Shown here: one piece after another, positions 7,425-42,320 of the stretch
How positions within the stretch are numbered: position 1 is the stretch's first letter
How the letters are laid out: each line of letters starts with the position of its first letter
The notes under the pieces: generated by a model
Seen by the model: the letters and a program-made list of their open reading frames with translations, nothing else
The model's database searches: none
What the model was told of the DNA's origin: nothing
Position numbers and translations under genes: made by a program
Source: a virus
Strand: one strand, 5' to 3'
Virus record (IMG/VR): IMGVR_UViG_3300045988_075769
Coordinates: 1 to 58,438 of that record
Length of the DNA stretch: 58,438 nt

Positions 7425-7426
7425 TT

Positions 7427-7666
7427 TTATTCTCCCCAGTCTATAAAATATCCGTTATAAACAAACTTTTTCGCTGCTTTACCAGCTTCGATTAGAGACT
7501 TCCCGACTTCAATCGCTTCGTCAGGCGTTAGTTCGCTGTAGCTTCTTTGCGGCAAAACCCTTACAGAAGCCTGATTTCCATGATGATTGAACCGAAACTG
7601 ATAATCAAACTTCTTTTCAAGGTCAAGTTCTGCTTTATTCAGAACGGAGTAGGGAACTTTTGCCAT
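7427..7666 (-). CDS. Hypothetical protein (79 aa)
   Basis: In-operon ORF ending 2 nt before the parA start. Confidence 0.55.
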   Translation of the reverse strand: MAKVPYSVLNKAELDLEKKFDYQFRFNHHGNQASVRVLPQRSYSELTPDEAIEVGKSLIEAGKAAKKFVYNGYFIDWGE

Positions 7667-7681
7667 TTTATCACTCTTTCT

Positions 7682-7891
7682 TTATTTTTCTGGTTCTTCA
7701 GGAAGCGGCATCCAATGGGTTACATCTTTTAGAACTTCGTTGTCCTTCCATACATCAACGGAATCCCTTTCCCACCACAACGAACCATATCTTCCTCTTG
7801 CCAAATGCCCAACGTCAATATGCTTTTCCGTAAAAACAATTACATTTTCCCTATAATTTGGCAACTCATCTTTCACACTAATCCATCCCAT
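7682..7891 (-). CDS. DUF551 protein
   Basis: MGWISVKDELP ... THWMPLPEEPE is the canonical DUF551 pattern. ATG at 7891 follows AAAGGAG, and an alternative start lies at 7912. Confidence 0.7.
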   Translation of the reverse strand: MGWISVKDELPNYRENVIVFTEKHIDVGHLARGRYGSLWWERDSVDVWKDNEVLKDVTHWMPLPEEPEK

Positions 7892-7931
7892 TCTTTCTCC
7901 TTTCTGCATCATCTGCTCAATGCGCTACGTC

Positions 7932-9011
7932 TTACTGCTCTTGTAACGCTTCAATGGAATAGAACGCTGGCATATACTTGTCTACGATACCCGCTTTGTC
8001 TACGCTTCTAATCAGATAGCCAACAGGTCTGTCAGGGAACGGAGACCTGTCCAAAGACAAGATGTCCTTATACGCCGCCTTCACCGTGTCGTAAACCGCT
8101 TCTCTGCGTCTCGGCAGCTTGATTTCTGGATGCTCTTTCTTCATCCACTTCTCAACTACCTTCGCCACGTCAATGCAGTCCTGCTTTTCCAATTCGTCAC
8201 ACACAGACCAATCAAAATCATCGTATCCGCTTCTACGGGGCTTTCTCACGGCTTTTTGAGGTTCTACCGGCACTTCGCTTGCCTGAGCTTCAATCAGCGT
8301 CTCAGACGCTTTAATTTTGGGCTTGAACTTGACCGCCACAGCCTTTCGTGCCACAAGAACCGGTTCATAGGTCACTACGATGTCAGACACGGCATTGATT
8401 TCATCTACTGCAACGTCAAGCACTCGTTTGCGGAGATTCTTGTAAACATCGTAGCTTGCTTCCATCGCACCGAGCTGTTCTCTCAGCTTTTTCAGACTGA
8501 TTTCATGCGGCTTGCTGTCCATGTTCAACCAGTCCCGAAGAATCGAATAAAGCAAAATGCTGTATTGAGACTTCATTCTTGACGTGTAACGCAGCCGATA
8601 CCGAACATAGCCGCTTTCAGCAATGTCAAAGAAAATAGGGCGAAGGTCAGGGTTGCAAGTGATTGCCACAACATAAGACCTTGTTTCCGGCACATAGTCC
8701 AGTTTTGCCCTTGTGAAAAGGACAAAGCTCTCAAATGTTCCCTTTTCTTTGTCAATGGGAATCGACACAGTGTTGCCCAAAAAGTGCTTGATCTGCGGCT
8801 CAATCCTTCGTGCATCAAGGCTTTTTAACCCCAGCAGGTCTCTGTACTCTGCCAACGAAAACTCCACACGGCTGCTGTTTGGGTCTCTTGGATTTATTCT
8901 TGACAAGTAAACCTCTAGCAACCGAAGCTCGCCTGCCGTGTAGTCCCTGAACTTTGCCCACACAAGAGATTTACTTTTTTCGACAAGGTTGTTGTCGGAT
9001 ATTTTTTGCAT
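7932..9011 (-). CDS. repB: Rep_3/RepB-family plasmid replication initiator
   Basis: The N-terminal region NLVEKSKSLVWAKFRDYTAGELRLLEVYLSRINPRD...RYRLRYTSRMKSQYSILLYSIL matches the Rep_3 pattern. Iterons lie immediately upstream. Confidence 0.8.
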   Translation of the reverse strand: MQKISDNNLVEKSKSLVWAKFRDYTAGELRLLEVYLSRINPRDPNSSRVEFSLAEYRDLLGLKSLDARRIEPQIKHFLGNTVSIPIDKEKGTFESFVLFTRAKLDYVPETRSYVVAITCNPDLRPIFFDIAESGYVRYRLRYTSRMKSQYSILLYSILRDWLNMDSKPHEISLKKLREQLGAMEASYDVYKNLRKRVLDVAVDEINAVSDIVVTYEPVLVARKAVAVKFKPKIKASETLIEAQASEVPVEPQKAVRKPRRSGYDDFDWSVCDELEKQDCIDVAKVVEKWMKKEHPEIKLPRRREAVYDTVKAAYKDILSLDRSPFPDRPVGYLIRSVDKAGIVDKYMPAFYSIEALQEQ

Positions 9012-9054: not shown

Positions 9055-9534
9055 TGGGGGACAAGTCAATACATTCTGTCCCCCGTGGCTTGTCTTTTTG
9101 TCCCCCATAGGGTCGTCAAAACGTCCCCCATGACTTGTCAAAACGTCCCCCATGCTTTGTCATTTCGTCCCCCATCTACATATTATATATTAAACAAGAA
9201 ATAAACAAGAGGTTAAATATCATCGTTAAATAGGCGATGACGATAATTTTCAACAATTTCTTTATTTTCTCATTCCAGCTTGTGAATAACTCAACCTTTC
9301 ATTTGCTGAATAAAGTCTTTCCAGCAATGATTAGTCTTATCTAACGTGTACAAAAAGTGGATGAAAAACTTTTGAGCCGGTGTTATGGGGGACGGATTGA
9401 CGAGATGCTTAATTGCAAACAACAAATTAACGCCAATCCGTCATTTATTCCGTGCGAATGTTGTCGATTTACAGCCTATGGGGGACGGAATGACAAGGCA
9501 AATTTGCCCGATAGGTGTACAAAAAGTGGATGAA
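9055..9534. other. Plasmid-type origin region (iterons, AT-rich spacer, inverted iteron cores)
   Basis: Inverted cores TGGGGGAC occur at 9055, 9386 and 9479. The tract 9176-9260 is AT-rich. A perfect 20-mer GTGTACAAAAAGTGGATGAA occurs at 9346 and 9515. Confidence 0.7.
9078..9175 (+). repeat. Five direct iterons at 22-23 bp spacing (core GTCCCCCAT)
   Basis: Cores begin at 9078, 9100, 9123, 9145 and 9167. The best-matching units read GTCCCCCATGACTTGTCAAAAC. Confidence 0.85.
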
Positions 9535-9575
9535 CGAGGACAAAATGTTCTGCAAAAACTTCGATAATTCGACCA

Positions 9576-22261: not shown

Positions 22262-23017
22262 ATGGCAACACCCCCGAAGCGTGGTCGTGGCAGACCGCCG
22301 CTGACCGAAGCGGAAAAGAAAAAGCGTGAGAAGCGAGCGCAAAAGGCGAAAGAGCAAGCTGCTGCGAAGCGTGAGAAAGAACGTGAGAAGAAGAAACAAC
22401 AGATGCTTAACAAGCGGAAATCTATCCGCTCACAGGTGAGTAAAAAGGTGAAAGAACAGCAGGAATTGGCAATCACGAGGTCTAAGATGCTGAACACAGG
22501 CGATTTGCAGTCAAGAATCGGCGATGAAGAGGACAAGAAAGTTGTCGGCATGATTGCAGCCAAGTATTTTGGCGACCTTCCGAGCGTGGACATGAACAAC
22601 CCGATTGAAGTGCAGCAACGCCTTGATTTCTTCTTTGACGCTTGCATCGAAGCCAGAATCTCCCCTGTGGTGGAATGGATTGCGCTGGTGCTTGGCATTG
22701 AATGGCCTAGTCTTAGACAGATTATGACAGGCAAACGCCGTGACGACAGCTTGCAGCAGAAGTACATCTTGAAGCTGATTCTGCAAATGCAGTCCATGTG
22801 GGCGTACAACGGTATGTATGGTCAGGAAAACCCGGCAGAGTGGATTTTCCGAGCCAAGAACTATTTTGGCATGCGTGACAACGTGGAAGTCACCGTTGCG
22901 CCGCCTGAACAGCCGTTGGGTGATGCCCAGAGCGCAGAGCAGCTTGCCCAAAAGTACCAGACGGCTTTGCCGAAGGGGATTGACGTGGAGTACAGAGAGG
23001 TGGTGGAACATGACTAA
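22262..23017 (+). CDS. Terminase small subunit-like protein (Terminase_2-like) with an AT-hook-like basic N-terminus
   Basis: RLDFFFDACIEARISPVVEWIALVLGIEWPSLRQI and EWIFRAKNYFGMRD resemble TerS motifs. The N-terminus contains GRGRPP followed by a K/E run. Confidence 0.5.
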   Translation: MATPPKRGRGRPPLTEAEKKKREKRAQKAKEQAAAKREKEREKKKQQMLNKRKSIRSQVSKKVKEQQELAITRSKMLNTGDLQSRIGDEEDKKVVGMIAAKYFGDLPSVDMNNPIEVQQRLDFFFDACIEARISPVVEWIALVLGIEWPSLRQIMTGKRRDDSLQQKYILKLILQMQSMWAYNGMYGQENPAEWIFRAKNYFGMRDNVEVTVAPPEQPLGDAQSAEQLAQKYQTALPKGIDVEYREVVEHD

Positions 23018-23246: not shown

Positions 23247-24020
23247 ATGAACTACGGGTATGCTCGTGTGAGTTCATCCGACCAAAACGAAGCACGGCAA
23301 ATAATCGCATTAAAAGAAGCCGGAATTGAAGAAAAAAGTATCTATGTAGATAAGCAGTCCGGCAAAAATTTCGACCGCCCTGCATGGAAACGGATGAAAA
23401 GAAAAATAAAAAAAGGCGATGTTCTTTTTATTAAAAGTCTTGACCGAATGGGACGAGATTACATAGATGTACAAGAACAGTGGCGACAGCTAAACAAAGT
23501 GAAGGGTGTTGACATTGTAATACTGGATATGCCGTTGTTAGACACACGAGCAGACAAGAATCTTGTGGGAACGCTTATTAGCGACATTGTGCTACAGCTT
23601 TTAGCTTTTGTTGCGCAAACAGAACGAGAAAACATTAAACAACGTCAACGCGAGGGCATCGATGCTGCAATGGCTCGTGGAGTTAGGTTTGGTCGTCCAA
23701 AGAGAGAATTGCCAGATGGATTTGAGGAAGCGTTCCAAGCGTATCTAAATGGGAAAATTGCAGGAACAGAAGCGGCAAAGAAATGCGGACTTCCTTATGG
23801 AACATTCTACACATACGCAAGGCAAAGGATTCCTGCTGGCGTGAAAATTCCAAAGCCACAGCCAAAAGAAAATCCGAAACCAAGAAAATTAAAAAAACCT
23901 GAACATTTTGACGAAGTATATTTTTCGTGGATAAATGGTGGAATGACAATGGAAGAAGCTGCAATGCTATTAGGAATTACAGAAAAGCGTTTTTATAGGC
24001 TTACGGAAGCGGAGGGATAA
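23247..24020 (+). CDS. Small serine recombinase (resolvase/invertase family)
   Basis: YARVSSSDQ catalytic-Ser motif, plus SLDRMGRD and QTERENIKQRQREGI, with a C-terminal HTH. Confidence 0.85.
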   Translation: MNYGYARVSSSDQNEARQIIALKEAGIEEKSIYVDKQSGKNFDRPAWKRMKRKIKKGDVLFIKSLDRMGRDYIDVQEQWRQLNKVKGVDIVILDMPLLDTRADKNLVGTLISDIVLQLLAFVAQTERENIKQRQREGIDAAMARGVRFGRPKRELPDGFEEAFQAYLNGKIAGTEAAKKCGLPYGTFYTYARQRIPAGVKIPKPQPKENPKPRKLKKPEHFDEVYFSWINGGMTMEEAAMLLGITEKRFYRLTEAEG

Positions 24021-24022
24021 AC

Positions 24023-24223
24023 ATGACAGAATGCCCCACTTGTGGTTCAAAAATGATTTTTCGCCACGACTACACGCAAAAATTCAGACATAACGGAAAA
24101 TGTGTAACGTTAAAAAAATTAAGCGGATGGTATTGCAATGAGTGCAAAGAAATTATCTATTCAGGAGAGGAAGCAAAACGAATTGAAAGAATTGTTCTTG
24201 AAAGAACAAAGAATGTTGATTGA
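24023..24223 (+). CDS. YgiT/MqsA-type zinc-finger protein (no HTH domain)
   Basis: CPTCGSKM...GWYCNECKEIIYSGEEAKR matches the MqsA N-terminal Zn-finger pattern. 66 aa. Confidence 0.55.
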   Translation: MTECPTCGSKMIFRHDYTQKFRHNGKCVTLKKLSGWYCNECKEIIYSGEEAKRIERIVLERTKNVD

Positions 24224-24992
24224 CTTCTCCGACCCATGCCTGCGCACGTTTCTGCCTGTTCTCTTGCAAGACCACACGACAGGCAAGAACATCATCTGGG
24301 CGACAGACCCGCCGCCTGAGCTTGGCGTTGGCTTTGCAGATGAAATCACGCTGGAACAACTGGACAAGGTTCAACTTGTTCCTCGTGTGCAGAAACGACT
24401 TGCAGACCAAAAGAAGCGCACCAGCAAGAAAGCAGAGGTGTTTACGCCGACTTGGGTTTGCAAGAAGATGGCAGAAGTTGCCGAAAACGACCTGAAGGGC
24501 GAGGACTGGAAGGAGTATATCAACAAGACTTGTCTTGAAGTAACCTGTGGAGAAGCGCCGTTCCTCACAAGCCGATACGACACCACCACAGGGCAGATGA
24601 TTGCCGTGCCGGACAGAATCGGTCTGCTGGATAGGAAACTAAATGTTCTGGCAGAGCAGTTCCATGACTACGATATGTGGATGTGCTGGGCAATCAGCGC
24701 CTACGCATCGACATACGGCTATGAGTGGCAGGGAGACAATGTCTTGCTGGCAAGGTGCAACCTGTTCCTGACGCTGGTCGAAAATTTTAGGTATCGGTTT
24801 GATGCTAAAAAGCTGGAAATCGGCAGTATGCCCATGTTTCTTGACTGTGTCGCAGACATCATCTCATGGAACGTCTGGCAGATGGATGGTCTGAAAAAGA
24901 CCATTCCCGGCACGGACATTCCGTGCAAAATAAAAGACTGGAAAGCCTACAAAGAAATCCTGTTTAAGGATGTTGGGGAGAACGAGCAATGA
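24213..24992 (+). CDS. MTase-fold-like protein lacking catalytic NPPY/DPPY
   Basis: AEVFTPTWVCKKM and LEVTCGEAPFL resemble N6-MTase N-terminal motifs, but I could find no (N/D)PP(Y/F/W). The start at 24213 overlaps the previous gene by 11 nt. Confidence 0.45.
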   Translation: MLIDFSDPCLRTFLPVLLQDHTTGKNIIWATDPPPELGVGFADEITLEQLDKVQLVPRVQKRLADQKKRTSKKAEVFTPTWVCKKMAEVAENDLKGEDWKEYINKTCLEVTCGEAPFLTSRYDTTTGQMIAVPDRIGLLDRKLNVLAEQFHDYDMWMCWAISAYASTYGYEWQGDNVLLARCNLFLTLVENFRYRFDAKKLEIGSMPMFLDCVADIISWNVWQMDGLKKTIPGTDIPCKIKDWKAYKEILFKDVGENEQ

Positions 24993-25189
24993 AAATCATT
25001 ACATATCCTGACGGTCGTTCGGAACAGGTTGGAACGCCATTAGAACTAGCGCAGTTTATGCTTGGCTTGATTGAATATCAAACTATGCAGAAGTTCAAGA
25101 ATCTGATTGATTCTATCCCACAGCAGATTGAAAGCCCAAATAAAAAACGCGCATCTAAAAAGAAAGCAGGCGAATTTAATGCAGACTGA
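24989..25189 (+). CDS. Hypothetical protein (66 aa)
   Basis: ATGA overlap with the upstream gene. Confidence 0.5.
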   Translation: MKIITYPDGRSEQVGTPLELAQFMLGLIEYQTMQKFKNLIDSIPQQIESPNKKRASKKKAGEFNAD

Positions 25190-25388
25190 CAGAGGAATCT
25201 ACCACAAGCGAGTGTGCGACCGCTGCGGAGCGGTACAGGGCGGCAGGATGATGAACCCTGACGAATACTTCAAAGACTGGGCGTGGCGCAGGGACACAGG
25301 CGACCTGTGCCCGGAGTGCTATGAAGAGTATAAGCGAGTGATCGGGCGGTTCAATGCCAACAGAAGGAGAAATAGAGGGCAGATATAA
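25179..25388 (+). CDS. Small Zn-ribbon protein
   Basis: CDRCG...CPEC. The ATG is at 25179. Confidence 0.45.
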   Translation: MQTDRGIYHKRVCDRCGAVQGGRMMNPDEYFKDWAWRRDTGDLCPECYEEYKRVIGRFNANRRRNRGQI

Positions 25389-25630
25389 TGGACGTTTACT
25401 GCACCACCGAACATTGCTCTTGCATTGGAATCAAGCAGTTCTCTGCTGGTAAGGCTATCCGATGCACGGCAGAATCCTGTAAGAACAAATCCGAGCCGTT
25501 CTGCGGCTCTTGCAAATGGTACGCAGAGCCGGAGGGCGTGTGTGTGAACGACCAGTCAAAACACGTTGCAGACTTTGTGTGGGATAAACGTGGGTGCAAG
25601 GAATGGGAGAAAAGAGAAAATGACAGCTAA
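25388..25630 (+). CDS. Cys-rich protein (80 aa)
   Basis: 10 Cys. TAATG coupling with the upstream gene. Confidence 0.5.
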   Translation: MDVYCTTEHCSCIGIKQFSAGKAIRCTAESCKNKSEPFCGSCKWYAEPEGVCVNDQSKHVADFVWDKRGCKEWEKRENDS

Positions 25631-25856
25631 AGAAACATTTGCCATATTTGTTTTGGGGTCGCTCATAACATTCTTTGTTGGAGCCTTTGTCACGATTTTT
25701 GAAATGTTTCTTTGGGATATGACCGATGACATTTCGCTTGGATGGTCGTGGAAGCACCCAGAACGCTCAACAATTGCTCATGCAATGATAATAGTGGCTA
25801 TTAACGCCACTGCCTTTGGCGGTGGTCTTCTGGCTGTATGGCTGGCGAAAGGATGA
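25620..25856 (+). CDS. Small membrane protein
   Basis: ATG at 25620. Two TM helices. Confidence 0.5.
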   Translation: MTAKETFAIFVLGSLITFFVGAFVTIFEMFLWDMTDDISLGWSWKHPERSTIAHAMIIVAINATAFGGGLLAVWLAKG

Positions 25857-25860
25857 GAAA

Positions 25861-26226
25861 ATGAGCTATGATATTTCGCTGTGCGATCCTGTAACGCATG
25901 AAACGCTTAAAGCGGATAGCGCACATTTTATCTCAGGCGGTATGAGAGCCATCGGCGGAACAAGGGAACTGTGGCTTAACGTCACATGGAACTATGCGGA
26001 CTTTTACTACCGTAAAGATGTGTTTGGAGAAAACGGCATCCGCTCCATCTACGGTAAAACAGGCGCAGAGAGCATCCCGATGCTGGAAAAGGCGATTGCC
26101 GCACTGGGCAATGATGTTGACGACAGCGACTATTGGAACGCAACAGAAGGCAATGCAAAGCGTGCGCTGTATGGGCTGCTGGCGTTTGCAAAGATGCGCC
26201 CGGATGGCGTATGGGAAGGTGATTGA
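25861..26226 (+). CDS. Hypothetical protein (121 aa)
   Basis: ATG at 25861 follows GGATGAGAAA. Confidence 0.55.
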   Translation: MSYDISLCDPVTHETLKADSAHFISGGMRAIGGTRELWLNVTWNYADFYYRKDVFGENGIRSIYGKTGAESIPMLEKAIAALGNDVDDSDYWNATEGNAKRALYGLLAFAKMRPDGVWEGD

Positions 26227-26466
26227 GTGAATAGCACGATATGGCATCCGGCAAGCGAACAGCCACGAGAACGGACGCAGCCTTTGCTGCTTGCGACTAA
26301 GACAATGTGGTGTGATAAAGATGGAAAAATGTTGCAAGGAATATCGCCGACAGCGTACTTTCTTGGCTGTTACGCAGACGGTCAGTTCTGGGACGAGATA
26401 GGCGAGAGGCTGCCGAAAAATGTGACAGTGACGCATTGGATGCGCATTGATGCGCCGGAGGAATGA
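26227..26466 (+). CDS. DUF551 protein
   Basis: GTG start follows GGAAGGTGA. WHPASEQP...VTHWMRIDAPEE. Confidence 0.6.
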   Translation: MNSTIWHPASEQPRERTQPLLLATKTMWCDKDGKMLQGISPTAYFLGCYADGQFWDEIGERLPKNVTVTHWMRIDAPEE

Positions 26467-26467
26467 T

Positions 26468-26701
26468 ATGAGTGACGAACTCAATGATTTTTTTAAAGCG
26501 TTTACGGAAGCAGCTGACAAGTTCTGCAATGAACTTGAAAAATTTGCAAAAGCAGTTAAGCAGTGCGAGACGCAATCAGGATGCTACAATCCGAAAGACA
26601 AAAGAAAGTCAAAGCACACACGCCCGGTCTACAGCAGAGGAAAGAAGCCTTGTGACGGGTTCAGGTCAACTATCAGAACGAGAGAGGGATTTAGAAAATG
26701 A
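26468..26701 (+). CDS. Hypothetical basic protein
   Basis: ATG at 26468. Confidence 0.45.
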   Translation: MSDELNDFFKAFTEAADKFCNELEKFAKAVKQCETQSGCYNPKDKRKSKHTRPVYSRGKKPCDGFRSTIRTREGFRK

Positions 26702-26910
26702 AAAACCTGTCAAAGAAGCACCTGAAACAGATTTACAGGCGCAGAAACAATTTCATAGGAAGCGTTGCTATGCTGAACCGGTTCTTCCGCTCTGCACCAA
26801 GTAATCGAGATGATTACAGCAAGATGATGGACTGGCGTTGGAGCATGTGTACGAACGTCTACTACATGATTCCGGGTGAGAAAATTAAGAGAAGGAGCAA
26901 AAGGACATGA
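26698..26910 (+). CDS. Hypothetical protein (70 aa)
   Basis: ATGA overlaps at both ends. Confidence 0.45.
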   Translation: MKNLSKKHLKQIYRRRNNFIGSVAMLNRFFRSAPSNRDDYSKMMDWRWSMCTNVYYMIPGEKIKRRSKRT

Positions 26911-27551
26911 GCATGGACAAAAAACGAGACAGCTTTACATTCCAACGATATTACTTTGAAGCCATCTCCACACTCAAAAGCAAAGAGAAGTTGGAACTCT
27001 ACGATGCAATCTGTGCATACATTTTTGAAGGAAAAGACGCAACTTTGAACTCAAAAAAGGCAGAATCTTGTTTCATTTTGATTAAGCATCTGCTCGATGA
27101 AGAACGGAAAAGAAGCGATATTTCGTCAAAAGGATGGTCTACACGAAAGTCGGCTCATCCTCATGTCATAAATGAGATGAAAGTCAGCTCATCTATGAGT
27201 TCAAAGTCGGATGAAAATGAGCCCATTGTATCGACTGACAGTCAGATGAACGTCAAGACCCTGCCAGAGAGTGCAGTCAAAAAGAAACCTGACATCTTCT
27301 CCGACTTTGCTCATGGCGATAAAGCCTTGCTGGAATCCCTGCGAGAGTTCGCACAGATGCGTACAAGAATCAAAAAGCCTATGACAGACCGGGCAAAACA
27401 GATGCTCTGCAACAAGCTGGAAAAGTTTGATCGGCATGATTGGAAAGCCATTCTCGACCAGAGCATCTATGCCGGGTGGCAGGACATTTACGCATTAAAA
27501 CAGGATGACCAGTACGAGCAAAGTACGGAGATGGAGTTTCCTAGACTATGA
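26907..27551 (+). CDS. Replisome organiser / DnaD-like replication protein
   Basis: N-terminal FQRYYFEAISTLKSKEKLELYDAICAYIFEG and C-terminal LREFAQMRTRIKKPMTDRA...IYAGWQDIY. It sits directly upstream of the helicase gene. Confidence 0.5.
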   Translation: MSMDKKRDSFTFQRYYFEAISTLKSKEKLELYDAICAYIFEGKDATLNSKKAESCFILIKHLLDEERKRSDISSKGWSTRKSAHPHVINEMKVSSSMSSKSDENEPIVSTDSQMNVKTLPESAVKKKPDIFSDFAHGDKALLESLREFAQMRTRIKKPMTDRAKQMLCNKLEKFDRHDWKAILDQSIYAGWQDIYALKQDDQYEQSTEMEFPRL

Positions 27552-28753
27552 CAATGGACGTTCAAACGGTATTTATCGGTGCGCTGATGCTCTGCAAGCC
27601 GGGCATTGTGGATGAAATCATACCAGACCTTGAACTTGACTTGTTCAGACCTGAGCTGAGAGACGCTTTTGCGGCTGTTCAGGGCTATTGGACGGCTAGG
27701 GGTAAGATAGATATAGTCGAGATAAACACGCAACATCCAGACGTAGCGCAGACACTCTTGGCGTGTGTACAAACCTGTGAATCAGAGTGTGTACGAATTG
27801 ATAAGGAGCAGATGCAGCGTTGGGTACAGCTTATCAGAGAACAAGCTGCACTCACTCGTGTGCAAGGTCTGGCATTTCAGATGACCAGCGAGCTTACCGA
27901 CTATTCTGATCTATCAGACATTTACCAGCAGATGGGCGAGGCGATGAGCCTGAAAGCTGAGGAAGAAGATGCGTGGACATACGAGGATGTGCTGAACGAC
28001 TATGTGCTTCACATGGACGAAAAGCCTGTGTACATCAAGACAGGCCTAGAGCGTCTGGATGAAGCACTGCACATCTCACCGGGTGATTTTATTATCATCG
28101 GCGGCAGACCGTCTGCTGGCAAGACAGCCCTGTCCTTGCAAATAGCAGCAAGCATGGCAAAGCAGGACTACACCGTGTACTATTTCAGCTTAGAAACCAG
28201 CAAACGCAAGCTGGGCGCACGTCTGATGGCCAATCAAATATACTGCCCTCTGGACACGGTGAAAAATAAGGCGGTCAGCTTAAATGAGATTGACGGACAG
28301 GCAAAAAACATGAAGATGCCCCTATATATACGCTCCGCTGCCGGAAAGAACGTGGCGTGGATGAAGGCGCAGGCTCTCCGTAAAAAGGCTCAAGTCATCT
28401 TTGTGGACTATCTTCAACTCATCCACGAAACAGGCGCAAAGGACAGATATGCCGCCATTACAGCTATATCCATTGCCCTGCACGAACTGGCACAGACCAC
28501 AGGAATTGTCGTGGTGGCACTGGCACAGCTCAATCGAAACCCATCCAAGCCCGGAGCAACGCCTACTAACTCCGACTTGCGAGAGAGCGGACAGATTGAA
28601 CAGGACGCAGATGCAATCATCCTTCTGTCCGGTGATAATCCCGACAAGTACCTGTTCCGGCTGAGCAAGAACAAGGAAGGCGAGATAGGCGACCTTCCCA
28701 TCATGTTTAACAAGCAGATTCAACGGTTCCAAGAGTACACTTGGATGGACTGA
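27548..28753 (+). CDS. dnaB: Replicative DNA helicase (DnaB family)
   Basis: Walker A GGRPSAGKT, Walker B IFVDYLQL, plus ALAQLNR and SDLRESGQIEQDADAIILL. Confidence 0.9.
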   Translation: MTMDVQTVFIGALMLCKPGIVDEIIPDLELDLFRPELRDAFAAVQGYWTARGKIDIVEINTQHPDVAQTLLACVQTCESECVRIDKEQMQRWVQLIREQAALTRVQGLAFQMTSELTDYSDLSDIYQQMGEAMSLKAEEEDAWTYEDVLNDYVLHMDEKPVYIKTGLERLDEALHISPGDFIIIGGRPSAGKTALSLQIAASMAKQDYTVYYFSLETSKRKLGARLMANQIYCPLDTVKNKAVSLNEIDGQAKNMKMPLYIRSAAGKNVAWMKAQALRKKAQVIFVDYLQLIHETGAKDRYAAITAISIALHELAQTTGIVVVALAQLNRNPSKPGATPTNSDLRESGQIEQDADAIILLSGDNPDKYLFRLSKNKEGEIGDLPIMFNKQIQRFQEYTWMD

Positions 28754-28768
28754 AAGGAGAACGAAAAG

Positions 28769-29056
28769 ATGACGCAGAATCGATACAAAAAACTGTTAAT
28801 GTCCATTGGCCTGCAACGCAATGAAGCTGATTTTGCCGTAAGACTTTTTATCGGGGCTCATCGGGGCGATGAAAGACGCCATGTAAACATCTTCCAGACG
28901 TACGATGGGCTTTGGGAGACATTTCAGTGGGTTATGAGAACACCTGTTGACCAGCTTCCGAAAATCACTCTGGTTGAAGAATTAGCGCAATACAACGAAC
29001 CGGCAAGAGCTGTTCTGTCAACTTATGACAGGATGGCTTTTTCTTGTTTCGCTTAA
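28769..29056 (+). CDS. Hypothetical protein (95 aa)
   Basis: RBS AAAGGAGAA. Confidence 0.55.
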   Translation: MTQNRYKKLLMSIGLQRNEADFAVRLFIGAHRGDERRHVNIFQTYDGLWETFQWVMRTPVDQLPKITLVEELAQYNEPARAVLSTYDRMAFSCFA

Positions 29057-29158
29057 ACACTGAGAGAAAGCCTGTTTTAAGGCGTTTTAGGTGTTGGACG
29101 ATAACTTTATCGACTTCATCGAAAAAACGCGCCACAGACGCTCGTAGGCGGCTCTCCG

Positions 29159-29362
29159 TTGATGCTGATGGCATATAGCAGACTGGGCTATGCAATCAGA
29201 CCGATGCAGGAGCGGGCAGAACAGCTTTTCAGGGTCAGACGTGAAAGTTATCGGGTCAATCAGAAAAACGCGGCAGACAGGCTCTTACACGCCTTTCCAG
29301 CGATGATAGCAGCCATATGGGCAGATGATAGTGACTATTCGTCTAATCGCAGGGCTGATTGA
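29159..29362 (+). CDS. Hypothetical protein (start uncertain)
   Basis: Last ORF before the gene-free island. It has no clear RBS. Confidence 0.3.
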   Translation: MMLMAYSRLGYAIRPMQERAEQLFRVRRESYRVNQKNAADRLLHAFPAMIAAIWADDSDYSSNRRAD

Positions 29363-29434
29363 GACGAAAGCAAGATGTGTGAGACGAAAAAACGCTTCGA
29401 CAATCACTTTCGGAAATGGCTTTCAAATTTTTGT

Positions 29435-29546
29435 CCCCTTTCCCCCTTGTTTCCTCTTCCCCCCTTTTGTCCCCCTCTTTCCCCTACAACCCCTATTACC
29501 CCCTATAATCCCCCTAGCATCTTCCGTGCTCCCCCTTTCCCTCCCC
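29435..29546 (-). repeat. Cluster of 11 C4-C6 tracts (G-tracts on the minus strand); G-quadruplex/i-motif-prone
   Basis: C-runs counted at 29435, 29442, 29459, 29471, 29481, 29490, 29499, 29510, 29531 and 29543 (plus a C3 run at 29539), all within 112 nt. Confidence 0.85.
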
Positions 29547-29763
29547 GTGTGTTTAGCGCGTCCGCGGGCGTTATACGCGCCAGCGCGCGCGTTGGCGGAG
29601 CCGGGTGTGCCACGATAGTTCAAAAGTGAATAAATAACAGTTATGCGAAATTGCAAGTTGGTTCTTTCCCCCTACAACCCTCTATCTCCAAAAGCCAGAC
29701 CGTTAGCCAGTAGAGCATACCGTAGGAAAGAACTAGCGTGAGGTTCGGACTGGTGGAAAGTCT

Positions 29764-30412
29764 ACGACTATTTCACATGAAGAATTGACTTCATTTTGTA
29801 GGCGGTTTGATATGTATAAATGTTGCATATCTGTATGAGCGGTTTATTACAAATTGAAAGCGTCTGACCGGTCGGATAGTCTTATTAAATAGTTAAAAGT
29901 ATTGAGATATTTGCTGAATGAGTAATCCTAGTTGGTTGGTATGATATAATTGTAGTTGTCAGTAATTAAATCGGAGTAGAACGAACCGAATCGGATGATA
30001 CGACTATTTCAGCAGAATAATAGTTAAAAAGATTGAGTAATTGTCTGCGACTATTATAATAAGTACGATTATTAAAGATTTTGAGGTAATGTGATTGGGA
30101 TTAAAATTGACAGGTGTCTTGATACATCTTGATTTTGGGAAGGTCGGATGACTTAGCGACTATCGCACCTCTCTTTCTCTAAAAGGCAAACAACTATTTC
30201 ACGCAAAAAAATACACGACTATTTAGCGATAATTCGCAAGAAAACGCTACGACTATTAATCTGCGACTATCAGCGAACAGATCGTTACTATACTATATAT
30301 AGGACTTTCAAACGCTAGTCATCTGACGACTTTGCGACTATTCTACGACTATCCGTCGGGAGAAGCTACGACTATTGGCTACGACTATTCCAGCCGGAAC
30401 GCTACGACTATT
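29764..30412 (+). repeat. Array of 13 same-orientation copies of [A/G]CGACTAT[T/C] (candidate lytic origin or centromere)
   Basis: Copies begin at 29764, 30000, 30047, 30156, 30190 (degenerate), 30215, 30249, 30263, 30334, 30345, 30368, 30381 and 30404. The background is AT-rich and spacing tightens toward the 3' end. Confidence 0.85.
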
Positions 30413-30419
30413 GCTGACC

Positions 30420-31037
30420 TCTATTAGCTATCGGGCGACAGCCCGAAAAGAGATACGGCGGTAGCCGTCAATGGTTCCGCGCCGCCAGCCGCTGGACTGC
30501 CCCACCGGGTGGAGCGTGTCAGCCGGTGCGCCCTGACCGCTAACCGGTGCCAGATCGCCGCCGGGCGTGGGAAGTATCGAGACCGCCGCCGGGCTGACCT
30601 TGTACAGGTGCAGACGTTACACCCCATCAGCGGGTGCGCCGGGTCTGTACTGCTGACGGTAGAAGCTGACCCCGCCGGGCTGGCATGGTCTGCGATATGC
30701 TGCACTGTCTGGCATAGATCCACGACAGGGGCGCACCCCTGCACCCTTATATATACCTTATTATAATAGGGCGGCTGTGCTGACCTACATAGCGTCCGGC
30801 GCGGCGGTGGTATCTGGGTATCGGTGCAAGGCGTCCGGGCGCGTGTGTGTGCTCCAGCGCGGCGCAGGCGGTGTTATATCCACTTTTGCCGGTCTGGTAT
30901 TTGTGGCGGTAGAATGTGGCAAATCTCAGAAAAAGCCACTGTAAAGCCCTGTGTACTGTTTTGTGATGTGGGTGGTATAACTGCATTAACGGAACAAAAC
31001 GCATTGCAAACGCTTGTATGCAGCTGTATTGCAACAG
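30420..31037. ncRNA. ORF-free GC-rich hairpin-dense block (candidate structured RNA; strand unknown)
   Basis: No credible ORF in six frames. Perfect small hairpins include TCGGGCgacaGCCCGA, ACGGCggtaGCCGT and CAGGGGcgcaCCCCTG. Repeated motifs include CCGCCGGGC x3 and GCTGACC x4. Confidence 0.3.
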
Positions 31038-31106
31038 GACAAAATAAAAGCCCTGCACCGTGTTAGATGCAAGGCAAAAGAAAAGCCCGGCCATTTCTGA
31101 CCGGGT
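31038..31106 (-). terminator. Tandem minus-strand terminators
   Basis: GCCTTGCA/TGCAGGGC followed by CTTTTATTTT, and CCCGG/CCGGG followed by CTTTTCTTTT (both read on the minus strand). They lie downstream of gene 31196-31459. Confidence 0.6.
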
Positions 31107-31195
31107 TGAATGCTTCTTATTTGGACGCTTTAAACAACGCCGAAAAAAACCAGAAGAAAAACAGGACACAAGATAAAATCACAGCTTGCACCCCC

Positions 31196-35113: not shown

Positions 35114-35139
35114 CTGTGATAGAAAGAGAGGGCACAAAA

Positions 35140-35757
35140 ATGAAAGTTGGGTATGTAAGAGTTTCGACAGCCGGGCAAAACACGGCTCGTCAGGAAGTCA
35201 TTATGGAACAGCTTGGTGTTGAAAAAGTGTTCATTGACAAAATGAGCGGCAAAAACACCGACCGCCCGCAGTTGAAAGAGATGCTGGCGTTTGTTCGTGA
35301 GGGCGATACTCTTGTGATTGAGAGCTTCAGCCGTCTGGCTCGTTCCACAAAAGACCTTCTGGAAATCGTTGAAGAACTTGAAAAAAAGAATGTAAAGTTC
35401 GTCAGCCAGAAAGAGAACATCGACACTTCTACGCCTAACGGAAAATTTATGCTGACTGTGTTTGCAGCTCTGGCACAACTGGAACGCGAAACGATGTTGG
35501 CACGGCAGAAGGAGGGAATCGAAATCGCAAAAGCAGAAGGCAAGTATAAAGGCAGAAAGCCTGTCGAAGTTGACGAAGAGAAGTTTCGGCAGCTTTATAA
35601 CGACTGGCAGAATGGAAAGACCACGCCGAAGATTATGATGAACGAACTTGGGCTGAAATCTGCTACGTTCTGGCGCACGGTCAAAAAGTATCGTGAAAAG
35701 TATGGTATCACTGATGCGGCCACCACACGCAAGTATGCCAATAAAGAGGAAAAATAA
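35140..35757 (+). CDS. Small serine recombinase (Hin/Gin/resolvase-like)
   Basis: YVRVSTAGQ, SFSRLARS and AQLERETMLARQKEGI motifs, with a C-terminal HTH. ATG at 35140 follows AGAGAGGG. Confidence 0.85.
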   Translation: MKVGYVRVSTAGQNTARQEVIMEQLGVEKVFIDKMSGKNTDRPQLKEMLAFVREGDTLVIESFSRLARSTKDLLEIVEELEKKNVKFVSQKENIDTSTPNGKFMLTVFAALAQLERETMLARQKEGIEIAKAEGKYKGRKPVEVDEEKFRQLYNDWQNGKTTPKIMMNELGLKSATFWRTVKKYREKYGITDAATTRKYANKEEK

Positions 35758-36631: not shown

Positions 36632-37864
36632 ATGAGAAAGGAGAATACATTGAAAACGATTAACGGAAAATATGCTTCCGCAAAGGTGTTCACAGACAAT
36701 ATTGAAGATAAGGCAACTGAGCAGATTTTGACGCTTTGCAATCAGAGCTTTGTTGACGGATGCAAGATTCGCATTATGCCAGATGTTCATGCTGGCTCTG
36801 GATGCGTTATCGGATTCACGGCAAACTTGGGCAAGAAGGTCATTCCCAATATTGTCGGCGTTGACATTGGCTGCGGAATGCTTGTCGCTGAACTTGGAAT
36901 TGAACATATCGACCCGGAAAAGTTGGATAAAGTAATCAGAGAACGAGTTCCGGCTGGAATGAATGTTCACGAATCGCAGAAAATGTCGGGAGCTTTTCTT
37001 AACCAACTTGACTGTAAAGATAGCTTGCATAATGTTGACTGGATTCTTCGTAGCATGGGTACTTTGGGTGGCGGAAACCATTTTATCGAACTGGACGAAG
37101 ATGAGGAAAAAAACCAGTACCTTGTTATCCATACTGGAAGCAGGAATCTCGGTAAACAAGTTGCAGAATATCATCAAAACGTAGCAATTTCTAATATCAA
37201 AGGAAAGAACAAAAGAAAAGAAGCTACGGAACGCCTGATTGAGGAACTGAAAAATCAAGGTCGTGAACAAGAAATCTCGCAAAAAATCAAAGAGCTGGAT
37301 ATTCAATTCCCCGATATTCCGAATGATCTTTGCTATCTTGAAGGGAAAGAACGTGATTCTTACCTTAACGATATGCGGATTTGTCAGGCATTTGCGAAAA
37401 TGAATCGGGCAAGAATTATGCACTCCATTTTAGATGGGGTTGGAATTGATTCTATGCTAACTCATGCGTCTTTCTTTGAAACCGTTCATAACTATATTGA
37501 TGAAACAGATAATATTATACGAAAAGGCTCTGTATCCGCTAGAAAGGGAGAGAAGCTAATCATTCCTCTTAATATGAGAGACGGAAGCCTTATCTGTGTT
37601 GGCAAGGGTAATCCTGATTGGAATTTCTCCGCTCCTCATGGTGCTGGAAGATTATATAGCAGAACAGCGGCTAAAAAAGCATTTAGCGTTGAGGAATACC
37701 AAAAACAGATGAACGGAATTTATACTACGTCAGCCGATGAATCCACGTTGGATGAATGCCCGATGGCATATAAGCCAGCACGGGAGATCATCAACGCAAT
37801 TTCTCCAACTGTTGATATTGTAAAGCATATTAAGCCGATTTACAATTTCAAAGCTGGAGAATAA
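36632..37864 (+). CDS. rtcB: RtcB-family RNA ligase
   Basis: MPDVHAGSGCVIG, VGVDIGCGM, GGGNHFIEL, HTGSRNLG and NFSAPHGAGR motifs. An alternative TTG start at 36650 has a better RBS (AAAGGAGAA). Confidence 0.9.
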   Translation: MRKENTLKTINGKYASAKVFTDNIEDKATEQILTLCNQSFVDGCKIRIMPDVHAGSGCVIGFTANLGKKVIPNIVGVDIGCGMLVAELGIEHIDPEKLDKVIRERVPAGMNVHESQKMSGAFLNQLDCKDSLHNVDWILRSMGTLGGGNHFIELDEDEEKNQYLVIHTGSRNLGKQVAEYHQNVAISNIKGKNKRKEATERLIEELKNQGREQEISQKIKELDIQFPDIPNDLCYLEGKERDSYLNDMRICQAFAKMNRARIMHSILDGVGIDSMLTHASFFETVHNYIDETDNIIRKGSVSARKGEKLIIPLNMRDGSLICVGKGNPDWNFSAPHGAGRLYSRTAAKKAFSVEEYQKQMNGIYTTSADESTLDECPMAYKPAREIINAISPTVDIVKHIKPIYNFKAGE

Positions 37865-38175: not shown

Positions 38176-39843
38176 ATGCAGCCAAAGCAGTGTATCGCCA
38201 TCATCGACAGCATCAAAGCGTATGCAAAACAGAATCCGACAGAAGCGCAGGTATATGAGGACTGGTTTCAGGCGGTGGTGAACTTAAGAGACGCTCTGCC
38301 GCAAGACAAGCGGTTCGATGCTTACAAATATTCTGGCGAACTGCGCTCTGTCTGCGCGGCCATGATGGGGAAGATGAAAACAGGCGAGGACGTGGCGAAG
38401 GTCTATGATATTATCAGCCGGACGTACCTGTTTGAAGCAAAGGATGTGTTCGACAGCTATTGCATTTACCTTGAATGGAATCGTGCGCCGGAGAAAAAGT
38501 TCTATCAGCCCAGACGCAGAGTGTTGAAAGTGCTGGCAGACGACCTAGAGGACTTGTTCTATAAGCGGATAGATTTCTTGGGGGTCAGTCTTCCGGCTCG
38601 TGTTGGCAAGAGTACGCTGTGCATTTTCTTCATCACATGGCTGATGGGAAACCGCCCTGACGTTGCATCGGTTATGAGCGGACATTCTGACAAGCTGACC
38701 AACGGCTTCTACGGCGAAGTGCTGTCCATCATCACCGACCCTGTAACTTACAACTGGGGCAAAATCTTCCCTGACGTTCAGCTTGTGGACAAAAGCGCAA
38801 AGGACGAAAGCGTTGACCTAAATCGAAAGAAACGCTTCCCCACCCTGACTTGCCGCTCCATTGGAGGTACGCTGACTGGTGCTGTTGAAATCGGCGAGGG
38901 CGGCGTGCTGTACAGTGATGACCTGATTGAGGACTTGGAGGAAAGCCTGAACGTTGAGCGTCTGAACAACAAGTACGATGCCTACCTGAACCAGCTAAAA
39001 GACCGTAAAAAGCAGGGCGCATTGGAGCTGATGGTCGGCACACGCTGGAACGTGCTTGACCCTCTGGGGCGCATCCAGAACCAGTACGCAGACAATCCTA
39101 AGTACAGATTTCGGGTGATTCCTGCGGTAGACGAGAACGGACACAGCAATTTCAATTATGACTACGGCGTGGGATTTGACGATGCTTACTATGCCGACAT
39201 GAAAGCAAGTATTGACGATGCAACATGGTGGGCAAAGTACATGGGCAAGCCTTATGTGCGTGAAGGTCTGCTGTTCCCTGCCGATGAACTTCGATACTTT
39301 AACGGTGTTCTGCCTGATGGTGAGCCTGATCGCAAGCTCATGGTTATGGATATTGCATGGGGCGGCGGTGACTTCACCGCCTGTCCTATCGCTTATGTGT
39401 ACGGCGATGCCGTGTTCATCCCTGACCTTGTGTTCAATAACGGCGACAAGACCGTGACCCGCCCGGAAGTCGTGGGTAAAATCATCCAGCACAAAATCAA
39501 CGTGGTGCGTGGCGAAGCCAACAACGGTGGCGATGAATACTGTGACGTAGTGGACAGCCAACTCCGGCAGCAAGGATACCACTGCTCTGTCCGCAGCCAG
39601 CGCGCACCCAGCGGTCAAAGTAAGCTGTCCAGAATCATCCAGTATGCGCCGGACATCAAACGGTTCTATTTCCTTGACGAAAAACACCAGTCAAAAGAGT
39701 ACAAGGCGTTCATGGAACAGGTGACAATGTTCACGCAGCTTGGCAAAGTTCCGCACGATGACGCACCGGATAGTCTGGCACAGCTTGCCGATGAACTGTA
39801 CAACGGAATCAGTAAAATTGAGCCTGTCAAGAGGCCTTTTTGA
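38176..39843 (+). CDS. terL: Terminase large subunit
   Basis: Walker A LPARVGKST, Walker B VLYSDDLIED, and nuclease acidic motifs MDIAWGGGDF, GEANNGGDEY and PHDDAPDSL. Confidence 0.85.
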   Translation: MQPKQCIAIIDSIKAYAKQNPTEAQVYEDWFQAVVNLRDALPQDKRFDAYKYSGELRSVCAAMMGKMKTGEDVAKVYDIISRTYLFEAKDVFDSYCIYLEWNRAPEKKFYQPRRRVLKVLADDLEDLFYKRIDFLGVSLPARVGKSTLCIFFITWLMGNRPDVASVMSGHSDKLTNGFYGEVLSIITDPVTYNWGKIFPDVQLVDKSAKDESVDLNRKKRFPTLTCRSIGGTLTGAVEIGEGGVLYSDDLIEDLEESLNVERLNNKYDAYLNQLKDRKKQGALELMVGTRWNVLDPLGRIQNQYADNPKYRFRVIPAVDENGHSNFNYDYGVGFDDAYYADMKASIDDATWWAKYMGKPYVREGLLFPADELRYFNGVLPDGEPDRKLMVMDIAWGGGDFTACPIAYVYGDAVFIPDLVFNNGDKTVTRPEVVGKIIQHKINVVRGEANNGGDEYCDVVDSQLRQQGYHCSVRSQRAPSGQSKLSRIIQYAPDIKRFYFLDEKHQSKEYKAFMEQVTMFTQLGKVPHDDAPDSLAQLADELYNGISKIEPVKRPF

Positions 39844-40265: not shown

Positions 40266-40343
40266 GCTACATTAGCTTAGTATGGTTAGAGCACTCGGCT
40301 CATATCCGAGCATACATTGGTTCAAATCCATTATGTAGCACCA
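40266..40343 (+). tRNA. tRNA with CAT anticodon (Met, or Ile2 after lysidine modification), CCA encoded
   Basis: Folded by hand: acceptor GCTACAT/ATGTAGC, D-stem GCTT/GAGC, anticodon arm CTCGG-CTCATAT-CCGAG, T-arm ATTGG-TTCAAAT-CCATT, then ACCA. G1-C72 argues against an initiator tRNA. Confidence 0.85.
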
Positions 40344-40724: not shown

Positions 40725-40775
40725 AGCGCAGTGAGATAGACCTTAACAGGTTTGTCTTGCTGCGCTTTTTATTTT
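40725..40775 (+). terminator. Rho-independent terminator just upstream of the portal gene
   Basis: AGCGCAG(40725-40731) pairs with CTGCGCT(40760-40766), followed by TTTTTATTTT. Confidence 0.65.
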
Positions 40776-40793
40776 GCCGGAAAGGAGGAACAC

Positions 40794-42320
40794 ATGGCTG
40801 AGTACCAGATGGTCGTTGGCGGCTTTTTGAATAATCCGCTGACCGGACGCAGACCGATTGAAACGCCGGAGACGGAAATCAATCGGGGAAATGTGCTGAA
40901 AGTGGTCATGGGCAAGGCAGAGCCTATTCATCTGCTAAACAAGAACGAAATCCGTTTCCTGCACAACTACTACTTGGGCAGTCAGCCCGTCCTCCTTCGC
41001 ACGAAGGAATACCACGCTGAAATCACGAACCGCATTGTAGAAAACCACGCCAACGAGTGCGTGGGCTTCTACACAGGTTATATGAGCGGCACGCCGTGCT
41101 CTTATGTGCGGTCTGAAACGGCAACTGGTGACGGTGAGGAAATCGCCCGCCTGTCCAACGCCTTGCAGTATGAAGGCAAGGACGCGCTTGATCGGCGGCT
41201 CTGGCAGTGGATGTTGGAGTGTGGACAGGGATACCGCATTGTTCTTCCTGACAAGGGGTATGGCGGCAACTACCCGGACGAAACACCCCTGCTGGTGGAT
41301 GTTCCCGACCCGGATATGGCGTATGTGATTTACAACTCCGGCATCGGACACAAGCCCATCGCCAACGTGCTGCACATCCCACGCAATTATCAGAACGACT
41401 TGAACGACCTGATTTGCGTGTACACGCCAAACCAGTACTTTGAAATCGACAACGGCAAGGTCACAAAATCTGAAAGCCATTCTCTCGGAATGCTGCCGAT
41501 GGTCGAATACAAGCTAAACCCGGAGCGCATGGGTCTGTTTGAACCGGCTATTCCCGTTCTCGATGCCATCAACGACCTAGAAAGCAACCGTCTGGACGGC
41601 GTGGCACAGTTCATCCAGTCCATCATGGTGTTTACGAACTGCCTTGTGGACGAGGATGCGCTCAACAAGGTTAAGGAACTTGGCGCAATGTGTCTGAAGT
41701 CCACCGCTGGTCTGCCCGCATCTGTTTCGCAGATTGCAAACGAGCTTGACCAGCAGCAGAGCCAGACCTTGCTTGATTCCATGTTGAATGTGTATCGCAG
41801 CCTGACTGCCATGCCCAGTGCCACTGGCAGCGAGAATGCAACGTCTGACAACGTGGGCGCAGTTATCGTCCGCAACGGCTGGAATCACACAGAAGCAAGG
41901 GCACAGCAGTACGAGAATATGTTCAAGTTCTCGGAACGCCAAAGCCTGTCTGTGATGCTGAAAATCCTGCGTGACACGGCTGATTCTAAACTGATGGCAA
42001 GCGACATCAACATCAAACTGCCCCGCCGTCAGTACGACAACCAGCAGAGCAAAGTTCAGATTTTTGCACAGATGCTTGGCCAGAGCATTGACCCGCAGTT
42101 GGCGTTCACAACGCCCGGTCTGTTCCCCGACCCGCAGGCTGCTTATGAAATGAGCAAGCCCTTCCTGATTGCCGCTGGCAAGCTGGGCGAGGACGGCAAA
42201 GCTCCGAAACCGCAAATTGAAAAGTCAAAACAGGATGTTCCCGACATAAATGCCGGGAACATGGCAAACAAACAGTCTGCCGATACCAACTCGGAGAACA
42301 GCGATGGAATCAAACAGTGA
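40794..42320 (+). CDS. Portal protein (SPP1 Gp6-like)
   Basis: ATG at 40794 follows AAAGGAGG. 508 aa, in the expected position and size, with the pattern NEIRFLHNYYLGSQP...NRIVENHANE. Confidence 0.8.
   Translation: MAEYQMVVGGFLNNPLTGRRPIETPETEINRGNVLKVVMGKAEPIHLLNKNEIRFLHNYYLGSQPVLLRTKEYHAEITNRIVENHANECVGFYTGYMSGTPCSYVRSETATGDGEEIARLSNALQYEGKDALDRRLWQWMLECGQGYRIVLPDKGYGGNYPDETPLLVDVPDPDMAYVIYNSGIGHKPIANVLHIPRNYQNDLNDLICVYTPNQYFEIDNGKVTKSESHSLGMLPMVEYKLNPERMGLFEPAIPVLDAINDLESNRLDGVAQFIQSIMVFTNCLVDEDALNKVKELGAMCLKSTAGLPASVSQIANELDQQQSQTLLDSMLNVYRSLTAMPSATGSENATSDNVGAVIVRNGWNHTEARAQQYENMFKFSERQSLSVMLKILRDTADSKLMASDINIKLPRRQYDNQQSKVQIFAQMLGQSIDPQLAFTTPGLFPDPQAAYEMSKPFLIAAGKLGEDGKAPKPQIEKSKQDVPDINAGNMANKQSADTNSENSDGIKQ

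Follow-up and report, generated by a model that had tools for sequence, protein, structure and literature searches.

A same-strand array of RCGACTATY repeats as the probable small-terminase recognition site of a siphovirus-like phage-plasmid

The IMG/VR virus record IMGVR_UViG_3300045988_075769, analysed here over its full 58,438 nucleotides (the window), is a siphovirus-like phage-plasmid of about 58 kb that carries thirteen copies of the short motif RCGACTATY, all on the plus strand, within about 650 bp at positions 29764–30412. We propose that this array is the site at which the small terminase subunit (TerS) recognizes the phage DNA, that is, a pac-type site equivalent to lambda cosB, and that its reader is the product of the gene at 22262–23017. 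Our confidence in this assignment is moderate, because all of the evidence is comparative. A packaging site had appeared as an alternative in a first-pass annotation made from the sequence alone; the comparative data now lend it support, as arrays adjoin terS in independent phages, and the array is not a peculiarity of a single genome.

Twelve of the thirteen copies are exact and one, at 30190 (ACAACTATT), is degenerate, and their number, orientation and positions agree with what the first-pass annotation had described. That annotation had written the motif with an initial A, whereas the copies at 30047, 30156, 30263 and 30334 begin with G; because four of thirteen do so, the motif is given here as RCGACTATY. 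The consensus of the array is (CT)RCGACTATY, and the motif is often seen as CTACGACTATT. Exact matches to ACGACTATY number eight, all on the plus strand and none outside 29764–30412 (expected 0.5; none of 100 shuffled sequences reached eight). The core CGACTAT is present in 12 exact plus-strand copies between 29765 and 30411 and 18 times in the whole window, where 3.27 occurrences would be expected and none of 100 shuffles reached 18. An unbiased k-mer scan likewise returned the array as the densest repeat cluster of the window. Its polarity is strict and matches the strand of terS, spacings of 11 and 21–23 bp are the commonest, and the right end of the main cluster consists partly of a 36-bp tandem unit. 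The partial copies reported earlier at 30064 (TACGATTATT) and 30326 (GACGACTTTG) are present, as is the inverted copy near 29874 (GGATAGTC), which is itself partial. A second repeat family was correctly placed at three sites (29882–29916, 30019–30047 and 30069–30095), although its copies are only 74–79% alike. The description of the region as AT-rich and free of genes holds: the GC content is 29–40% over 29750–30350, climbing to 48–52% at the right end of the array, and from about 29363 to 31050 there is no credible open reading frame (ORF): those listed are rich in Arg, Cys and Pro, unlike proteins and without family match. Table 1 collects the coordinates of the array and its surroundings.

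Table 1. Features of the array locus and of related genes in the window
Feature	Position	Strand	Remarks
Dispersed copies	29764 (ACGACTATT), 30000 (ACGACTATT), 30047 (GCGACTATT); span 29764..30055	+	Spacings 236 and 47 recur in relatives
AT-rich spacer	29775..30150		29-35% GC; holds the second repeat family; middle part varies between relatives
Main cluster	30156..30412	+	Ten copies: 30156, 30190 (degenerate), 30215, 30249, 30263, 30334, 30345, 30368, 30381, 30404
TerS	22262..23017	+	251 amino acids; P22 gp3/GP3_package type; proposed reader of the array
Left border block	29654..29763	+	Imperfect inverted repeat 29654-29669 / 29725-29740; abuts first motif copy
TATAAT-like element CTATTATAATAAG	30051..30063	+	Perfect 13-bp inverted repeat with 30757-30769
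Inverted partner CTTATTATAATAG	30757..30769	-	Inside block conserved in >70 of 85 relatives
Two short GC hairpins	30430..30468		CGGGCGACAGCCCG, ACGGCGGTAGCCGT; conserved, right edge of array; second terminator-like on minus strand
GC-rich stretch	30470..30900		60-74% GC (genome 47%); GCCGCCGGGCTGACC-like motif at intervals of 86-100 bp
TerL	38176..39843	+	phrog_38, E 1.8e-55; Pfam Terminase-T7_RNaseH-like; presumed nuclease/motor partner of TerS
SPP1-type portal	40752-42320		Pfam SPP1_portal
DNA between terS and array	23247..29362	+	Serine recombinase 23247-24020, small ORFs, O-like initiator, DnaB, two small ORFs; outside the proposed mechanism

Conservation in related genomes extends, spacing included, to several hundred relatives from the human gut. 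A scan of IMG/VR with the O-like replication protein of the window retrieved 302 matching stretches, and in the 80 loci listed the protein is 95–97% identical; the contigs of these loci mostly measure 50–60 kb and belong to a human-gut family that is very common, and the closest cellular relatives of the protein come from Oscillospiraceae and other Clostridia. The array is present in nearly every relative whose contig extends far enough, and the spacing 34, 24, 34, 14, 71, 11, 23, 13, (21), 23 is kept across 47 distinct relatives. Column conservation in a 48-sequence family alignment is 93% for the motif versus 83% for the spacers. In a distant relative, L085, whose initiator, DnaB and TerS are 47%, 72% and 42% identical to those of the window, at least 25 same-strand copies of CGACTATT are separated by spacers unrelated to those of the window, and selection therefore acts on the motif itself. 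An analogous AT-rich block with TTGCTTATTTTTTGAAGATTTTGAG repeats stands just left of the L085 array. When viral sequences were scanned with the initiator of L085 (P0045), nothing beyond the window family was recovered. Among the array-bearing family loci, 133 of 142 have a full-length TerS gene upstream on the same strand, 4.8–8.9 kb away. The interval from dnaB to the array is a hot spot of gene replacement, with 0.8–3.6 kb of differing content.

The link to terS emerges from two kinds of search outside the family. Searches that started from DNA, namely from CGACTATT clusters in viral and metagenome contigs and with no protein information, returned irregular arrays on short unrelated contigs (L244, L379, L381/L388, with L403 having the same spacing, L385, L462 and L417). 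In five of these lineages (L244, L379, L381/L388, L385 and L462) a homologue of ORF 22262–23017 precedes the array on the same strand, the array beginning at or within the 3' end of that gene; in L417 the TerS-like match is weak (E 8.6e-8) and the array lies 1.2 kb downstream. Many metagenome matches were spaced in multiples of three and therefore point to coding tandem repeats, and the pattern matches in L233 and L243 were discarded as Cys-rich coding 9-bp repeats. Conversely, when exact proteins were looked up, a same-strand array was found to span or follow the terS stop codon in all six homologues, as seven copies of CGACTAT(T) in L475 and L477 and as three to six copies of a CGACTTTC(A)-type motif in L479–L482.

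Two further IMG/VR scans with TerS proteins supplied 31 protein-first lineages, in which 750 bp around and after the stop codon were examined. Four or more copies of CGACTWTY occur downstream of terS in seven of the 31 lineages and upstream in none. Summed over all lineages, the downstream side has 45 copies on the plus strand and 1 on the minus strand, the upstream side 12 and 2. Other repeats occupy the same place in distant TerS clades, GTAACTTTC ninefold in L516 and CGTGTAGTT twelvefold in L517, again on the terS strand and non-coding. Judged from these sequences, the motif differs between TerS clades (CGACTATT, CGACTTTC, GTAACTTTC, CGTGTAGTT), and since other clades carry other repeats at the same position relative to terS, the architecture appears to be general and the motif clade-dependent. 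The sole constant neighbour of the arrays across lineages is terS; no regulator gene is consistently linked to them.

Gene order offers a further clue as to how the window is related to these phages. In L388, L475 and L477, the first copies fall within the 3' end of terS, and an AT-rich ATTATTATAAT segment, the main cluster and GC-rich DNA come next, followed by a minus-strand gene block, a serine recombinase and TerL. The window shares this order to the right of its array, with an invertase at 35116–35757 and TerL at 38176. The window family and L085 differ in that a recombinase and the replication module lie between terS and the array, a block that is absent in L388, L475, L477 and L479–L482, where the array abuts terS.

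On the strength of its homologues, the product of ORF 22262–23017 is probably a terminase small subunit of the P22 gp3 type (Pfam GP3_package). It matches the L244 protein in tblastn with E 7.7e-18; five of eight aligned homologues match PF16677 (best 1.2e-14) and phrog_606 'terminase small subunit', and PF16677 is found on most large-database homologues among the matches listed (best 120 of 247). The AlphaFold model of the core has a pLDDT of 82.7, and its best structural match by probability is P22 gp3 (3p9a; TM 0.43–0.55, match probability 0.6). The protein opens with a Lys/Arg-rich N-terminal extension of about 90 residues that begins with an AT-hook, PKRGRGRPP (nucleotides 22274–22300). 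An AT-hook is likewise present on the TerS of L462, and short TerS homologues of about 185 residues are without the extension. The window holds no other TerS candidate upstream of TerL. Partnership of the two subunits is consistent with the presence of TerL in the same genome and with the terS...recombinase–TerL synteny of L388, L475 and L477.

In the mechanism that we propose, TerS would form a ring-shaped oligomer like small terminases of the P22 gp3 and SPP1 G1P types, and its helix-turn-helix domains would bind the 10–13 RCGACTATY sites of like orientation, possibly assisted on the adjacent AT-rich DNA by the N-terminal AT-hook. The resulting nucleoprotein complex would recruit TerL, which would cut concatemeric DNA nearby, maybe in the AT-rich, TATAAT-like segment that separates the main cluster from the dispersed copies. 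Headful packaging would then start from the cut, probably rightwards to the structural genes. Binding by TerS, wrapping around the ring, cut position and packaging direction are all features that we infer by analogy.

Several observations weigh against a packaging site read by TerS. The window TerS has no direct Pfam or PHROG match, and the structural match of its core to 3p9a is not significant (E = 1.8). Neither is the array adjacent to terS in the window, the gene ending at 23017 and the first copy starting at 29764, a gap of 6.7 kb. Moreover, terS belongs to the early operon and is 15 kb away from TerL, an arrangement that is atypical among known pac sites. In at least 16 of the 31 protein-first lineages the 750 bp examined showed no obvious array, and covariation of motif and TerS is imperfect, as L385 encodes a clade-B TerS, yet has CGACTATT and CGACTTTC mixed. 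Helical phasing of the spacing is weak (resultant about 0.28). The DNA-binding domains of SF6 TerS bind pac DNA with little sequence specificity (PMC4737164), and repeats near terS are therefore not always binding determinants. Finally, seven unique IMG/VR contigs of relatives stop inside a C-rich tract at 29499–29668 and not in the array. This cluster of ends is probably an assembly effect. We rejected contig ends as evidence of a physical genome end, given that the hot spot lies in the C-rich tract outside the array and that some ends carry Nextera adapter sequence; such sequence (CTGTCTCTTATACACATCT...) was seen at the ends of the public viral contigs L148 and L159.

The first-pass annotation had suggested a lytic replication origin. 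On this reading the O-like organiser (26907–27551) or a RepA_N-like protein would bind the repeats as iterons, with melting of the adjacent AT-rich DNA and loading of DnaB to follow. We now consider this unlikely, even though the setting invites it. Iteron origins such as lambda ori within O, the SaPI ori downstream of pri-rep and the Rep_3 set of the window (9078–9175) likewise combine same-orientation repeats, AT-rich DNA and replication genes nearby. Here, too, the repeats adjoin a stretch of 29–35% GC, and in both the window family and L085 the O-like and DnaB genes precede the array; its position behind a replisome-organiser/DnaB module (26907–28753) had been recognized correctly. In 74 of 166 window-type loci the first copy is preceded, about 110 bp to its left, by the end of a RepA_N/DnaD-like gene, which is found at 5280–5999 in L001 and just upstream of the array in L085 (5387–6094). 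The window-type O-like gene has no internal iterons, which leaves its own origin unlocated, and the L417 array is situated at the 3' end of a separate ORF that is putatively Rep-like from its translation alone.

What speaks against an origin is the behaviour of the array when the replication genes are exchanged. A second replication allele, the L001 type, encodes an initiator that shares only its Pfam family and no BLAST similarity with that of the window, together with a DnaB that is 56% identical, on an otherwise similar backbone (Rep_3 96% and ParA 95% identical). A scan with this initiator found 244 matching IMG/VR stretches, and the array is kept in 73 of 73 loci with enough sequence downstream of dnaB, with a spacing equal to that of window-type arrays. 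The L001-type initiator gene also contains repeats of its own in the part coding for a linker (ATGCAAAYG, about sevenfold, L001 2593–2755), and the DUF6291 organiser gene of L225 has AGCAAAC eleven times with an 11-bp period in the corresponding part (2448–2612); these look like lambda-type origins, with ori inside O. The RepA_N-like gene is optional; it exists in two alleles of 33% identity, and L001-type genomes almost always lack it. Furthermore, arrays with this motif or a related one abut terS in phages with DUF927, D5_N/DUF5906 or VapE-like replication modules, the D5_N- or VapE-like ones lying upstream of terS on the opposite strand, whereas 56 Clostridia genome loci with relatives of the initiator C-terminal domain are without a CGACTAT array. 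Iterons are expected to be inherited with the DNA-binding domain of their initiator and the array is not; the origin interpretation is therefore unsupported. Repeats in the loci of two distant initiator homologues (L086 and L227) were excluded as coding peptide repeats, and the contigs with another, P0065, end shortly past the gene. A Chi-like site was also dismissed, the motif not being enriched in 56 genome loci from Clostridia and others.

A regulatory or architectural array, bound by the TerS-like protein or another factor and serving late-transcription control around the TATAAT-like element, sequestration of TerS or silencing of packaging in the plasmid state, is in our judgement quite unlikely. 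It would fit with terS being in the early operon far from TerL, with a conserved promoter-like match inside the locus (TTGAGT-16-TATAAT, 30033–30060), with a position between convergent transcription units and minus-strand terminators (31105–31050), and with a copy number (10–25) far above that of known pac sites. The lack of a consistently linked regulator gene argues against it, and the constancy of terS as a neighbour is explained less simply than by a pac site. Packaging and replication might also be joined at the array. In the window family and L085, terS would have moved to the early operon and the replication module been placed between terS and the array, often with a RepA_N cassette abutting it, so that the array would be a joint hub of lytic origin and pac where TerS competes or cooperates with replication proteins and the element switches from its Rep_3 plasmid mode to concatemers and packaging. 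We attach little credence to this scenario.

A plasmid centromere (parS/parC) for ParA (6654–7424), bound by the ribbon-helix-helix (RHH) protein of 5726–6298, was the other alternative raised at first and is very improbable. Type Ib and II centromeres are short direct-repeat arrays (R1 parC, pB171 parC1/2, pSM19035 heptads), which the array resembles, and the parA promoter region (7380–7960) has no array. But 23 kb separate the array from the par operon (5726–7424), the array motif tracks terS in other phage types, and a better candidate exists in the operon itself, where about 15 same-orientation copies of TTNGGCT occur at 6010–6225 inside the RHH gene. These TTNGGCT(T/G) repeats fall in the N-terminal coding part of this NikA-like gene (5726–6298, minus strand), the last of the ParA operon, and are a candidate partition centromere, one that would lie within the very gene encoding the protein that binds it. 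Hardly credible, finally, is a non-coding 'sponge' RNA that would start at the TATAAT-like promoter and offer repeated CGACUAUU motifs to an RNA-binding protein: every motif lies on one strand, with the promoter-like site upstream of the main cluster and the hairpins at 30430–30468 downstream, but 30066–30475 has no structural signal (z = -0.65) and no Rfam match, the first copies of relatives lie inside the terS coding sequence, and promoters or terminators are not consistently found at the arrays.

The elements flanking the array are conserved to different degrees. The left border block is kept in about 68–73 of 85 relatives, and the DNA to its left is mosaic. The TATAAT-like element and its inverted partner bracket the main cluster and the GC-rich stretch; the element might serve as a promoter -10 box, as a site of bending or as the cleavage region. 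The sequence TATAATAAGTAC is invariant in a three-sequence alignment and highly conserved in the 48-sequence family alignment, and ATTATTATAAT-type elements separate the first copies from the main cluster in L388, L475 and L477 and occur within the array in L085. The GC-rich stretch is part of the conserved module, its middle (30500–30700) varying between relatives, and GC-rich DNA likewise follows the arrays of L388, L475, L477 and L519. It gave no RNA-fold signal on either strand (z = -1.25), no Rfam match and no credible ORF. Of the convergent transcription units around the array, the plus-strand early/replication operon ends near 29362, and the minus-strand block runs from an antirepressor gene at 34342 down to 31196, before the terminators. 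Scans with Rfam and for tRNAs found only tRNA-Met at 40266, a sub-threshold match to a toxic small RNA at 31077–31170 probably being due to chance. A C-rich tract at 29435–29548 (also 29666–29680) has TCCCCC/GTCCCCC motifs that resemble the Rep_3 iteron core GTCCCCCAT and is shared by roughly half of the relatives; it may serve Rep as an accessory binding site (copy control), be a scar of recombination or simply break assemblies.

The remainder of the window is in keeping with a phage-plasmid. Its plasmid functions comprise a Rep_3 initiator (7932–9011) with 22-bp iterons (9078–9175) and ParA, confirming the earlier placement of a RepB iteron origin some 20 kb from the array. This plasmid origin (9055–9561) also has inverted iteron copies at 9384–9404 and 9477–9497 and a second repeat, GTGTACAAAAAGTGGATGAA, at 9343–9371 and 9512–9540. 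The replication genes encode an O-like replisome organiser with a DUF6291 N-terminal domain and DnaB (27548–28753); two domains of the organiser were modelled confidently, with no significant match in the PDB. Structural genes include TerL, the SPP1-type portal, a capsid gene and an ORF of tape-measure size. Two serine recombinases (23247–24020 and 35116–35757) flank the region that separates terS from TerL. A gene for an RtcB-type RNA ligase (36632–37864) is situated just upstream of TerL, and the tRNA-Met (40266–40343) between TerL and the portal gene. Small proteins common to the window and L085 (26227–26466, 25388–25630 and 28769–29056) have no family match, and p95 is absent from most relatives. 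The array locus has no match among the PLSDB plasmids.

As a packaging site the array differs from known pac sites in having many more copies, in lying 3' of terS and, here, in being separated from it. The pac region of SPP1 includes direct repeats, grouped in three sets, at the terS gene, and rings of TerS present helix-turn-helix motifs about one DNA turn apart, for which wrapping of the DNA has been proposed (PMC4737164). The SPP1/SF6 site (pacL-pacC-pacR; box a, b, c) resembles the window in that a short direct-repeat cluster is the candidate docking region for TerS, and its cleavage segment between repeat sets may be likened to the layout of the array. By contrast, SPP1 has three box pairs in the promoter and 5' end of terS, whereas the arrays described here have 10–25 copies of one motif at or after the terS 3' end; the SPP1 boxes are at terS, whereas window-family arrays are 4.8–8.9 kb away (133 loci); and the SPP1 TerS belongs to the G1P family, that of the window to the P22 gp3 family. 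Lambda cosB consists of three R sites for gpNu1, the lambda TerS (R3, R2, R1), and the IHF (integration host factor) site I1, and among lambda, 21 and N15 the recognition helix and the site sequences differ together (PMC4669245). The likeness would be that TerL is anchored by repeated sites for TerS and cuts nearby; N15, moreover, is a phage-plasmid too. Lambda nevertheless has only three sites, one of them inverted, beside cosN and upstream of terS, and packages from cos rather than by headful, whereas the array is of single orientation, has many more copies and is accompanied by no known cohesive-end site.

Closest in protein family is P22, whose TerS is of the GP3_package type as in the window and whose site is tied to the terS gene. 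The P22 pac is a single 22-bp site inside gene 3 (terS), that is, one asymmetric site instead of an array. Its reverse complement (GAAGATTTATCTGAAGTCGTTA; PMC5261728) contains ACGACTTCAG, one base from the CGACTTTCAG that follows clade-B terS in L480–L482, which may be chance. P1 is a phage-plasmid like the window, and its pac is composed of several short repeats that form two groups on either side of a central segment. There, seven TGATCA/G hexamers flank the cut inside pacA, are bound by PacA and are controlled by Dam methylation. The motif of the window is longer (8–11 bp), has 13 copies and is non-coding, as opposed to hexamers within a gene.

To our knowledge, pac sites have been defined experimentally in only a handful of phages. 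Concrete targets are now at hand in the fragment 29.65–30.47 kb and the protein encoded at 22262–23017, as well as in the approximately 300 and 244 IMG/VR stretches for the two replication alleles. The case also calls for caution in annotation, as a repeat array next to AT-rich DNA and replication genes may resemble an origin without being one. If our interpretation is correct, a group of P22-gp3-type TerS proteins in phages of gut Clostridia would mark pac with 8–25 repeats on one strand, placed at the stop codon of terS or beyond it, and packaging specificity, transduction and helper/satellite relationships would become predictable from sequence.

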